This document shows, in pieces, positions 41,625 through 47,141 of a stretch of 64,000 nt of DNA. The notes under the pieces were generated by a model. The model searched no databases and had not been told where the DNA came from. It was given only the letters and a program-made list of their open reading frames with translations. Within the stretch, counting starts at the first letter, position 1, and each line of letters begins with the position of its first letter. Source of the DNA: Podarcis vaucheri (Eukaryota). A program made the position numbers and the translations under genes. The stretch is from assembly GCA_965113315.1 (NCBI GenBank), contig OZ220368.1, one strand, 5' to 3'.

Positions 41625-41960
<336 letters not shown>

Positions 41961-42334
41961 TTAACAAAGACAAAAAAGAGAGGAGGGCTAATCTACAGAT
42001 CAGTTTTCAAGCATACGTTACATAAAACCAAGACCAAGAAAAGAAAAAGAGCCTGTTAAATTCTCTGCAGTGAAGAACGCACATTCAGCACACGGCGTAA
42101 TGTTCGGTTTGAAAAGCACTACTAAATGCCTCTGAAACAACAGCTGCTGAACTCAATTATAAGGAACTGAAATTGAGTGTGTATTAGTGGTTCCCTTGGA
42201 GAACTTGGCTGCACCCTGCAATCAAATGAAGTCTCCTTTATGTTGTGATCTAGTACATGGTTTTATCGGAGGAGGTTGTAGCTACTACCTTTATTGCCTG
42301 ATGAAAGCTTAATGGGTTCGATCATGGAGCAAGC

Positions 42335-42605
42335 TTGCTCCAGAGGCTGGGACCCAAAGCAATGGCTTCAAGTTACAAGAAAGATGATTCTGACTAAACA
42401 TCAGGAAAAACTTTCTGACAGTAAGAGCTGTTCAACGGTGGGACGAACTCCTTCGGAAGGCGGTGGGCTCTCCTTCCTTGGAGATTTTTAAGCCAAAGTT
42501 GGATGGCCATCTGTTATGGATACTTTAGATGAGATTCCTGCATTGCAGACTTCTAGACAAAATGCCCCTTGGGGTCCCTTCCAACTCTACAATTCTATTG
42601 TATTC
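42335..42605 (+). mobile_element. CR1 LINE 3' end in the last ELAVL4 intron (antisense to the gene)
   Basis: aactttctgacagtaagagctgttc...ggtcccttccaactctacaattcta. Confidence 0.85.
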
Positions 42606-44853
42606 ACACAGGCATCAGTGAATTACCAAGTACCTTTATTTGTAACTACTGAGACCCTAGAAAAAAGCATTGCTGTCCTGTCTAAGATGTTGTGTGCAAT
42701 ATGAATGTGTATTACATGTGTGAGTTCTGTCTCTTTACACAGATATATTTAAAGCTGTGTGGGGCTAGCTTAGCTGAACCACAACTGTTGACCCCCACAG
42801 AGGGCAGCAAGCACTTTTGTTTTCTGTAATTTACTAGACTTATTACTTGCTATACCATTAACACGACAAGTTATGAAAACTAAAGACTGCTTCATGCAAA
42901 TCTTTGCCCTACATGGATATAATATCTAGGTCCTGGTAGTCAGCAGGACACCCTCTAGTTGTTGTGGACTCTAGTATTTGGGAGGCCCAGCCATGGTGGT
43001 GAATGGTCAGGGATGATGGGAGTTTTAGTTCACATTAGCACCCTGATCTGGATGGATTCCAGTGTCCAGAAACTATATGGTAGCTGCTTGAAAACTTACC
43101 ACATGGTCACCTGAAATCACATGGGGAGGTAGTATTCGGTAGCATGCAATTTAAGCCGATTGTAACTGGTGCACCACAACCACCCCAGAAATCAAGGGAA
43201 GCGGGGAGGTAAAAAGGAACGAAGTTTAACGCTGAGATAATTCAAGCAAAACTGCTTAACTGCCCTAGTTTAAGTTCATATTTTCAAGCACCAGGTGGTA
43301 AGTTCTGAAGTGACCACTCTCACCTGAATCTGTGCAGGGAAAAATAGGTACTCTGTTACTTCTAAAGTGCAGTAGGGATATTTTTTACCCTGCCAGGAGT
43401 ACAATGATCAGAAAGACTTGGGGAATGCATAAAACAGATGAAAATCTCTAAATGTTGGGGAGCATGGCTGCCCCACCCTGTGTGATTTCATAAGGCAGAC
43501 CAAGTGCTGGTTCAAAGCTACAATCCAGAAATATTGTGTGTGTGCGGCTGCACCTACACAGTATTGACATGCAGCATGAAATATACCTGCAGTCTGTGGG
43601 TGACATTCTTTATTTCTGATACCTACACCCTGTAATAAAAAGCTAGCCCCCAACCCACCTCATGCTGTCCCTTTAAGAAAATATCTGCACCCCGAAATTT
43701 TCATTTCATTAACTAGAAGAGATCAATTCACATCCAAAGGAAGTCAAAATTTTATGTTATTTATGTGCCCCCCCCAGTTTTATTGTTGTTCTGATGTATC
43801 AATAAAATCTATTTTTTAAAAAAGCAAAAGCACATCCAAATCATCTCCCTCATTGGGCATGTCCCCTACTGTGTCTGCCATCTGGAGGAGAATGGCCCCA
43901 TTCACACCTCGCAGGAATGTTGGCAAATGCTAATGATCAAATTCTGTTCTGCGGATGTGACAAATGTGGTGTCAAGGAGAGGGGGCTTCCCGACTGGTGA
44001 ATTTCTGTCCGACTTGGAAATCCACAGAGTGCCTTGCAGCCCACCCCATCTCAAAGACTGGAGTGGGTGGGCCTGTTTTGTCACACCCTACTTTTTCAAC
44101 ATGGATGGATCACAATTGGACATGTGTGCACACAGCTGTGTATGTACCATGTACCTCTCATACGGTGAGAGGCTATACATACAGCATTTTTGGATTATAA
44201 ATGTGAGAAACAGTCCTTTAACCTCTGTGCTGATGTATGTGGATTATTAACAGAGAAGTCATACTAATGTAACAGTTTCATGCCATCAGGACAGTATTTT
44301 CAAATTTCCAGTAGTGACACTATGAAATAAAAATCAGAACAAGCAATTTAACTTAAAAGAAGGCAAACCACAAGCTCCAAATTACTGGAAACACTTGTCA
44401 AACCTGCAACAAAGAAAATAAGAGGCCTGATTAAGGTGCACACAGTTACAGCATTTTATGAAACTTGGGTAGCTCCCTTACCTTTCTAAACAATATTGGG
44501 TTTGAGTCACATTTTCAGTGACAATTTCACACTATAAGCCCAGTGACACCAAATCTTTGTTATAATAAACTCTGATTGAGTGAGACTTTTAAAGAGTCAT
44601 TTAACAATACACTTAGGAAATCAGAATGCTTGTAGCTGTTGCACCTAAACCATCTTAGAAGACCTGTAACAAAAGAAAAAGTAGAACATGCACACAAAAA
44701 TCACACACTATTTTTTGTGTGTGTGTGTTTGTGCATGGTGTTAAAGAAAATGAACTGAAGTCCAAACGAAAAGACAGAAAACATTTGGCATGCTGGTGGG
44801 GGGAAAAAAGGAAAGAATTAAAAACAAAATAAAGTTAGTGATTAAAAAAAAAA

Positions 44854-44993
44854 NNNNNNNNNNNNNNNNNNNNNNNNNNNNNNNNNNNNNNNNNNNNNNN
44901 NNNNNNNNNNNNNNNNNNNNNNNNNNNNNNNNNNNNNNNNNNNNNNNNNNNNNNNNNNNNNNNNNNNNNNNNNNNNNNNNNNNNNNNNNNNNN
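44854..44993. other. Assembly gap (140 N), likely hiding ELAVL4 exon 6
   Basis: N run. No LDNLLNMAYGVK-coding sequence is visible between 41953 and 46854. Confidence 0.8.
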
Positions 44994-46853
44994 CAAGATT
45001 GCTCAATGGAACTTTTATTAATAATGCTCCATTTTCAAAGAAGAAATTCGTAACATCAACTCCTGTACATCTAGCGGGTCTAATGAATCAGCAGCTATAG
45101 AGCTGCTTTTACTTCCACAATAAACAAATGACATTTAAAAATGTGCTGGTAATGTAGAAAGGTAACATTCCACCATCTTACAATTTGATTCATCACAGAA
45201 GAATTCCCTTGCGGTTTTGCTTCTGCACACTATATCAGCCTGAAATTGTAACTATTGCTATGATTTCCACTATTTACCTTTCCATTGCCATTAAACCTGT
45301 AAATAGAAATAATAATAAAAAATACACTGGTGGCAGCCGTTTAGGATTGTACTAGTATTGTGAATTGTAGACATTTTTCTTTTGTTGGGAGAAATTATTT
45401 TTGATGCCTAAAAGCCAGAGCAGATTATCCTAACATTTTTCAGATCAGATCATTAAACAAAGTTGACAATGTTTAGTATGATGGGCAGTCACAATGCAGC
45501 ATGTATAAAGGCCTCCCCAACTTAAAAATTTATGGAGCTTTCCATATTAATGTATTAGGCAAATGGGTTTTTGTTTCCCAAGGGGTCAAGGTTGTAGGCA
45601 ATAAATAACGAACTGAAATTAGCTACATTGTTCAGAACAATTAACTTTAAAATAAAAATGTAACATCCATCACACTTCATCAGAAAAACCAAGAAGTGTT
45701 CTGTAAATGCTTTAAATGTGAAACAATTTGTGAATATTCTGTTCAGAAATCTGTATCTGCACAGAATGCTAAACTCTGGTTTTGTTTTAACCTTGGTTAG
45801 TTTAAGCAGATATCAATTTGTCTCAACTGACAAGTAAACAAGGCATGGCTTGTTTCCCCAGAACTTGGGTTTACATTCCAGCTCCTCTTGCCTCCACAGT
45901 TCGGCAAGCATGTAGGAAAGGTGGCCAAACAAACCATCATTAGGCAAGACTGTTGAGAGAGAGGACATAACATTGAACCACAGTTAAAACAACCTAGGAT
46001 TTGTGTAGTCAACAACAAACCATGGCTTCACATTGTGATGGTACCAGAAAAAAACCATGGGCTGACACTCAAACACATCCCACTTTGGTTAAACTAACCA
46101 TGGTTTAGTATTATGTGTGAGGGAGGCCACTTTATATTTATTTCTATCTATATATGTATTAAACTCAATGAACACATACTGAAATAAAGCTGTGTGTTAT
46201 TTGCACTTTATCTGAGCACTTCAAAAGCAGGCATTTAATGCCAATAGGTACTAATGCTTTCTCTATGGAAACCAATCCAAATGTAGAAACAAGTTTACGC
46301 AAAAGGCTGCCATGAATAGGGAAAGTCCCCACAACAGTAGTGCATAAGCAGGGCAACTATACTGTGTTAGAGACATCTAACAGGTGATCAGTATTGTCAA
46401 CTTTGATTGCCAGAGAAAAAGATCTAGTATATAACCTGCTTCCTGCACCTTTTGCTTAACAAGGGATTGCTGCAAGCTAATCATATCCTGGGGCACATGA
46501 CAACAAGTACATAGTTGTTGTTTTTTTTACTGTATCTCTAGTTCCCTTGACTGGGGCTTTTATTTTTAATTACCCTAATGCTATGTTAATGTTTTGTATC
46601 TTTTTGTATCAATGCACCATGTATAAATGAAAAATGAATTCTTTTTCTCATTTTTATGTGGGGTAATAATTCACACATATTCCTTTTCTTGTTTACGTGA
46701 TTGTCCTATCATTCCTTTGCCCAACAAAATCTGGTCAAACCACAGTTCTGTCAACTCAGGAACCTGCAAAAAGATGGCCCACCGAACTCCCAGTCATAAG
46801 ATACTGAAAAGTAACCTATAACAACAATAAAATAAATTATTTGGAGAATGTTA

Positions 46854-47141
<288 letters not shown>

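Follow-up and report, generated by a model that had tools for sequence, protein, structure and literature searches.

Does the intron that follows exon 6 of the HuD gene carry a poison exon through which the gene regulates itself, or does the candidate exon found there belong to an element of another kind? The question is raised by the window, a 64,000-nucleotide stretch of contig OZ220368.1 from Podarcis vaucheri (GCA_965113315.1), for which an earlier note proposed a 182-nt exon subject to nonsense-mediated decay (NMD) that, together with a 19-nt microexon, would form an autoregulatory cassette bracketing exon 6. The host gene on the minus strand is ELAVL4/HuD, and its exon 5 matches annotated avian, reptilian and amphibian ELAVL4 proteins at 100% identity; three paralogs are located at other places of the 1.6-Gb genome. 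The 39-nt exon 6 is masked by N in the window, and its position (Table 1; ~44950-44912 as a point estimate) was inferred from the primer spacing of Wang et al. 2010 (PMC2887941) and from an avian ortholog, L016, rather than read from letters. The candidate acceptor at 44663 lies ~250 nt past this position, within the 3-kb intron 6.

Some further features of the gene layout were recorded. Read-through of the exon 5 donor (46852-46855, minus strand) leads to a stop at once, after QRFR, and the elephant and tailed-frog models (P0102, P0154) terminate exactly there. An upstream AG before exon 7 (41953-41995, minus strand) lies 40 nt from the main acceptor. In mammalian proteins the extension has 14 residues (42 nt), a HuD variant that looks out of frame here. 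A 19-nt block at 45028-45046 (minus strand), ~80-95 nt 5' of exon 6, is identical in L016 and probably belongs to the AU-rich element already known upstream of exon 6.

Table 1 Features of ELAVL4 around intron 6, in window coordinates. L016 is the avian ortholog.
Feature	Position	Strand	Remarks
Exon 5 (end of RRM2 and hinge)	46855..47080	-	phase 2 at its end
19-nt microexon candidate	45278..45296	-	region homologous in L016
Exon 6, 39 nt, inferred place	44911..44952 (+/-3 nt)	-	from primer spacing (PMC2887941) and L016
U-rich Hu-responsive element with CACUAAC (branch-point-like)	44826..44853	-	homolog of the +44..+94 element of Wang et al. 2010
Acceptor A1	44789..44812	-	pyrimidine tract and CCACCAG/CAUG; first exon base 44792; overlaps GCAUG
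Acceptor A3	44662..44683	-	poly-U tract and UUACAG/GU; kept in L016
182-nt candidate exon	44482..44663	-	phase-2 reading RSSKMV and stop; splicing candidate only
Predicted duplex, 5' arm	44624..44657	-	30 nt identical in L016 (44653-44624)
Early TAG	44645..44647	-	in frame in L016; CAG in human primer; first base is the sole unpaired position of the consensus helix
Diverged loop	44456..44623	-	168 nt here; 182 nt in L016
Donor AAG/GUAAGG, within the duplex loop	44476..44484	-	not kept in L016
Predicted duplex, 3' arm	44419..44455	-	19 nt identical in L016 (44445-44427); covers branch-point-like CCUUAAU
Acceptor A4	44403..44423	-	pyrimidine tract and CAG/GUUU; kept in L016; no conserved donor behind
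Last exon (exon 7), coding part (RRM3)	41625..41952	-	begins at 41952

The description of the candidate exon in the earlier note holds at the level of its letters. On the minus strand, a strong acceptor (ttttcttttgttacag/G at 44663) and a strong donor (AAG/gtaagg at 44482) enclose 182 nt that in phase 2 read RSSKMV followed by a stop, and this stop lies 163 nt before the exon 7 junction, more than the 50 nt that define NMD geometry. Splice-site scores are crude counts throughout, not MaxEnt values. Under a similarly crude chance rule (at least 17/20 pyrimidines plus YAG, a donor with at least 6/7 consensus positions, and a spacing of 50-250 nt), two acceptor/donor pairs pass on the sense strand of the 64 kb, the candidate included, and one on the antisense strand; the occurrence of so strong a pair is uncommon yet within reach of chance. 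The early stop carries no information, because 4103 of 4347 stretches of 182 nt drawn at random from introns 5-6 would qualify too, having a phase-2 stop more than 50 nt from their end; in 30% of such stretches a phase-2 stop falls within 6 codons.

Restoration of the reading frame by joint inclusion of the microexon and the candidate exon was ruled out, as a stop follows 9 codons in. A recursive splice site was also ruled out, the regenerated donors being weak both here (AG/GTCTTC and AG/GTTTGA) and in L016 (AG/GTGGGC and AG/GTTTAA), and so was a repeat origin, the 434-nt element being single-copy in its own genome.

L016 was the only one of 24 metagenome hits to be an ELAVL4 ortholog; it contains exon 6 flanked by 1.5 kb on either side, and the other 23 were unrelated chance matches. 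Peptide matches to two bird gene models identify it as avian. It keeps the acceptors at 44792, 44663 (with the poly-U tract) and 44403, and at 44663 (UUACAGGU) and 44403 (CAGGUUU) the AG and the bases following it are preserved amid diverged flanks. This sequence comparison supports selection on acceptor 44663. The early TAG is also in frame in L016, across a 3-nt indel. The donor at 44482 is lost: the homologous place reads CAT/GTGGCT (4/7), and no donor of at least 5/7 occurs for ~640 nt. The loop around it is weakly alignable to L016 (5/300 shuffles reach the score), and the TGCATG that precedes the 44663 acceptor here (at 44692) is absent from L016. The earlier note took absence of the splice sites from orthologous introns as a refutation and also asked whether the early stop is conserved. 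In L016, the one species compared, the donor is absent, whereas both the acceptor and the TAG in its frame are retained; as donor conservation failed in the one ortholog, the exon should not be classed as a conserved poison exon. For the 19-nt microexon, too, the picture is divided. The surrounding region is homologous in L016 (0/300 shuffles reach the alignment score) and the donor AAG/GT is kept, but the length and the acceptor are not (17 nt behind AAG).

Human sequence enters the comparison through the HuD primers around exon 6 listed in Table 1 of Wang et al. 2010 (PMC2887941). Of the 8 primers compared, six can be placed in order between 45012 and 44641 and 2 do not align; when scored against 2123 tiles, 4 of the aligned primers are outscored by at most one tile and the others by 8 and 46. 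One primer keeps CCACCAG/CATG at 44792. The last aligned primer spans the initial 23 nt of the candidate, with CAG at the place of TAG. According to the available text of the same paper, Hu proteins act via AU-rich elements at +44..+94 after HuD exon 6, and the most conserved mammalian stretch lies within 271 nt of the exon. HuD feeds back on its own exon 6. In support of the earlier note, the candidate acceptor is situated at the distal edge of the conserved block through which Hu regulation is known to act. The 94-nt reporter described there responds to Hu without any of the three AGs, which shows that the known feedback does not depend on the acceptors. The terms 'NMD' and 'cryptic' do not occur in the available main text (PMC2887941), and the passages on variants in a HuD review (PMC3708524) give only exon 6 and exon 7 variants.

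Exact matches between the two introns reach at most 30 nt, and one of 19 nt ranks joint second in length; each of these two corresponds to one arm of a predicted RNA duplex. The arms, ~170 nt apart, are mutually complementary and conserved above their surroundings. Among 914 intron windows, the 5' arm pairs most stably with the 3' arm, at -29.5 kcal/mol (mean -12.0, sd 3.6); among the 12,644 windows of the whole strand the 3' arm ranks second, one window elsewhere reaching -30.4, and in L016 it is the best partner of 580 windows. Dinucleotide shuffles reach the complementarity of the arms in 1/200 and 3/200 cases, the two species not being independent of each other. The consensus helix has 16 invariant pairs, interrupted by a single U.U mismatch and a single bulge, with predicted core pair probabilities of 0.97-1.0 in 3/3 contexts per species, longer contexts included. 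The sole difference of the human primer within the 5' arm, a C, falls on the unpaired U.U position. The predicted duplex links the exon body to intron sequence 27 nt past donor 44482. The 44663 junction is mostly paired in the predictions (unpaired 0.12-0.28 and 0.15-0.17), and the helix extension that reaches it uses different flanking pairs and bases in each species. Core covariation is absent, the 16 pairs being invariant across 2 sequences, and the flanking helices differ between the species. Folding of the whole region is unremarkable against shuffles (z of -1.34, 18/200, and -0.68, 49/200). Rfam returned nothing in the window region and one chance hit in L016, and a 21-nt arm motif gave 0 matches in the genome_contigs and viral_contigs collections. 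Splice sites that are cryptic or inactive are reported to be overlain more often than expected by conserved complementary regions (PMC8052449). As modelled here, the conserved element would be an RNA duplex, whose likely role is to keep stray acceptors after exon 6 quiet.

Two short sequences resembling the arms were seen in other places. A 12-nt copy of the 3' arm core lies 300 nt farther along, at 44126-44137 (minus strand), and would be able to pair with the 5' arm at -20.4 kcal/mol; its place is not conserved. In the ELAVL2- and ELAVL3-like genes, the sequence that follows exon 6 has no alignable block, save one 17-mer. It lies ~195 nt past exon 6 in the ELAVL2-like intron (G000:C39, ~17961600-17961700; L008), agrees with the latter half of the 5' arm at 15/17 positions (1/100 shuffles) and is possibly a motif common to the paralogs.

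The acceptor with the best appearance is that at 44792 rather than the candidate's own, with CACTAAC and 19/20 pyrimidines ~120 nt past exon 6 (44789-44840; L016 1504-1546). It is common to L016 and a human primer, and here it would read SMPNVFCLFVWTSVHFL followed by a stop. The GCAUG that overlaps it is presumably an RBFOX motif, and the AG may be kept for the sake of this overlap. A scrub-jay ELAVL4 isoform (X7, XP_068879478.1; P0229), an RRM3-less RefSeq model, carries the tail GVK-SMSNSF, and the L016 homolog of 44792 reads SMSDSF and a stop, matching the scrub-jay tail at 6/7 positions when the next best of 104 AGs reaches 3/7. This model is one of 265 retrieved proteins of the ELAV family, 238 of which include the end of exon 5, and its RNA support is not visible; a search aimed at protein tails, covering 72 representatives, turned up no other tail of the SMS type. 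None of the 265 proteins ends in a tail predicted for 44663 or 44403 (SSKMV, WASQMV, FDKCFQ), a weak result because NMD targets would not appear as proteins. RRM3-less annotated isoforms as such are recurrent, being present in scrub-jay, ruminants (GVKR-HW and a stop), elephant and tailed frog (both ending at exon 5) and gecko. Variants at the hinge (P0129, P0133, P0029-P0031, P0040, P0043, P0233) comprise this ruminant ending, a tail that follows exon 5 in a gecko and, in pelobatoid frogs, an extra exon of 26 residues; the ruminant HW and frog extra-exon sequences have no match in intron 6 here or in L016.

The explanation that we prefer, at roughly even chances, is that three conserved acceptors without a conserved donor are held mostly unused by the predicted duplex, and that the 182-nt exon is a lineage-specific leak. 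Acceptor 44663 would be one of these three, and the first 30 bases of the candidate would double as one arm. By pairing over a 170-180-nt loop, the arms would mask the branch-point-like motif of 44403 and the 44663 junction. Once the duplex has formed, exon 6 would join exon 7 and the acceptors would remain mostly silent, serving as decoys or as minor alternative 3' sites that give RRM3-less transcripts, of which one, from 44792, is annotated in scrub-jay. With a donor specific to this lineage present in the loop, any leak here would yield a cassette sensitive to NMD, 182 nt long or, if entered at 44792, 311 nt long, and this cassette would be a by-product, not the conserved switch. Several observations weigh against this explanation. 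Both arms are seen in one ortholog only, and their core is invariant, hence without covariation. In the available text of Wang et al. 2010, the conserved mammalian stretch (271 nt) falls short of the 3' arm, which the human primers do not reach either. Furthermore, the 3' arm masks a branch-point-like motif, whereas conserved complementary duplexes tend to avoid branch points (PMC8052449). The reporter of Wang et al., which ends at +293, would by our inference include the 5' arm and exclude the 3' arm; because it probably ends before the second arm, the duplex and the acceptor cluster would have escaped testing.

A wider form of this explanation, which we regard as rather unlikely, is an old amniote structural switch. 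Hu proteins on the U-rich tracts and a co-transcriptional duplex would choose between capture of exon 6 by the acceptors, yielding RRM3-less or retained-intron RNA, and joining to exon 7, and this lineage would have been rewired to NMD through one donor in the loop.

A regulated poison exon, possibly confined to this lineage, is doubtful. Hu or RBFOX levels would set its inclusion, the duplex would act as a silencer as in BRD2/BRD3, whose poison exons are controlled by RNA structure (PMC10789245), and inclusion would lead to NMD. The strength of both splice sites here, with only two such pairs on the sense strand, the acceptor and in-frame TAG kept in L016, the stop 163 nt before the junction, and a duplex that reaches from the exon body past the donor all fit this scheme. 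However, the donor and the TGCATG are missing in L016, the human primer has CAG for TAG, and the stop is expected by chance. RNA data do not bear on the matter. Four of the 24 listed RNA runs were compared with 41881-44760; two raw-read runs cover repeats only, and one contig set tiles 42649 to 44419 at depth 3-7 and is blank over the candidate, a blank that proves nothing. No run covers any of the 72 exon 7 bases taken as positive control. The catalogues of human poison exons speak against the scheme as well. The conserved list of Felker/Yan has no ELAVL4 row, with the controls SRSF7 and FAF1 found (PMC9882217 supplements), and a GENCODE-based list of 5322 events, as far as available, contains one ELAVL4 poison exon, which is 229 nt long and starts 982 nt after its donor (PMC10123112). 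Its length and its start show that it is not the candidate. By genome coordinates it presumably follows exon 3, in line with human RRM1-only isoforms. ELAVL4 rows are also absent, with no positive control, from PMC11188260 (12/13 supplement files), PMC7347940 and PMC8052449 (5 supplement files), and the mouse retention supplement PMC8168582 has no Elavl rows at all. A literature search found no paper on a poison exon or duplex in ELAVL4 intron 6; subscription papers or supplements may contain one. Of the autoregulatory poison cassette of the earlier note, the acceptor thus survives as a conserved feature, but the donor and the TGCATG are not conserved and the searchable human lists hold no match.

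We are similarly sceptical of the possibility that the acceptors are incidental, that is, U-rich Hu/TIA sites and RBFOX/QKI-type motifs that happen to be followed by AG. The duplex would then be an RNA bridge bringing distal U-rich elements near exon 6, or an ADAR substrate, and the 182-nt exon would be a silent pseudo-exon. Hu does work through U-rich elements here (PMC2887941), RNA bridges are a known use of conserved intronic duplexes (PMC8052449), pseudo-exon pairs this strong arise about once per 64-kb strand, and the UAG lies within an imperfect helix. Chance motifs, however, do not readily account for the AG and next bases kept at 44663 and 44403 amid diverged flanks, nor for the use of 44792 by one annotated isoform, and the HuD editing sites reported in the available text of PMC2831006 lie in RRM2 and the 3' UTR, at below 1%, which argues against the ADAR role. 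Least probable is a functional alternative last exon, with acceptors that yield stable RRM3-less HuD and a duplex that picks among them: annotated RRM3-less isoforms recur, the scrub-jay one at the 44792 homolog, but no poly(A) signal is conserved (AATAAA at 43784 and beyond here, none past the last acceptor in the remaining 1.1 kb of L016), the predicted tails behind the acceptors differ between here and L016, and no fetched protein ends in those of 44663 or 44403.

A conserved intronic duplex with clustered acceptors is therefore put forward as a candidate new element of HuD intron 6. If the preferred explanation is true, the duplex would add a concrete and mutable layer to the control of HuD dose and isoforms and would offer a target for antisense oligonucleotides; the locus would also illustrate how a poison exon can originate, with a conserved acceptor gaining a donor in one lineage. 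If the duplex is idle, the candidate is just one more pseudo-exon, located in a regulatory element already known.

The element of Wang et al. 2010 (PMC2887941) is at the same locus, as 6/8 human primers align in order here. With the conserved complementary pairs of Kalmykova 2021 (PMC8052449) and with BRD2/BRD3 (PMC10789245), as far as these sources are available, HuD intron 6 shares a pair of conserved complementary intronic blocks, of about -27 to -30 kcal/mol, beside cryptic acceptors. HuD differs from them in that one arm is inside the would-be exon, the other lies over a branch-point-like motif, and there is no conserved donor. The decoy exons of SF3B1, OGT and ARGLU1 (Parra 2018, PMC6097662) and the caspase-2 decoy acceptor cited in that paper likewise represent conserved, clustered and poorly used acceptors; as in HuD, the decoys are found in introns of more than 1 kb beside a regulated exon and introduce stop codons if spliced. 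The SF3B1 decoys have conserved 3' and 5' sites, whereas HuD has conserved acceptors only. Decoy acceptors are marked by multiple conserved competing sites in an intron longer than 1 kb, and HuD presents, for acceptors alone, three conserved sites in a 3-kb intron.
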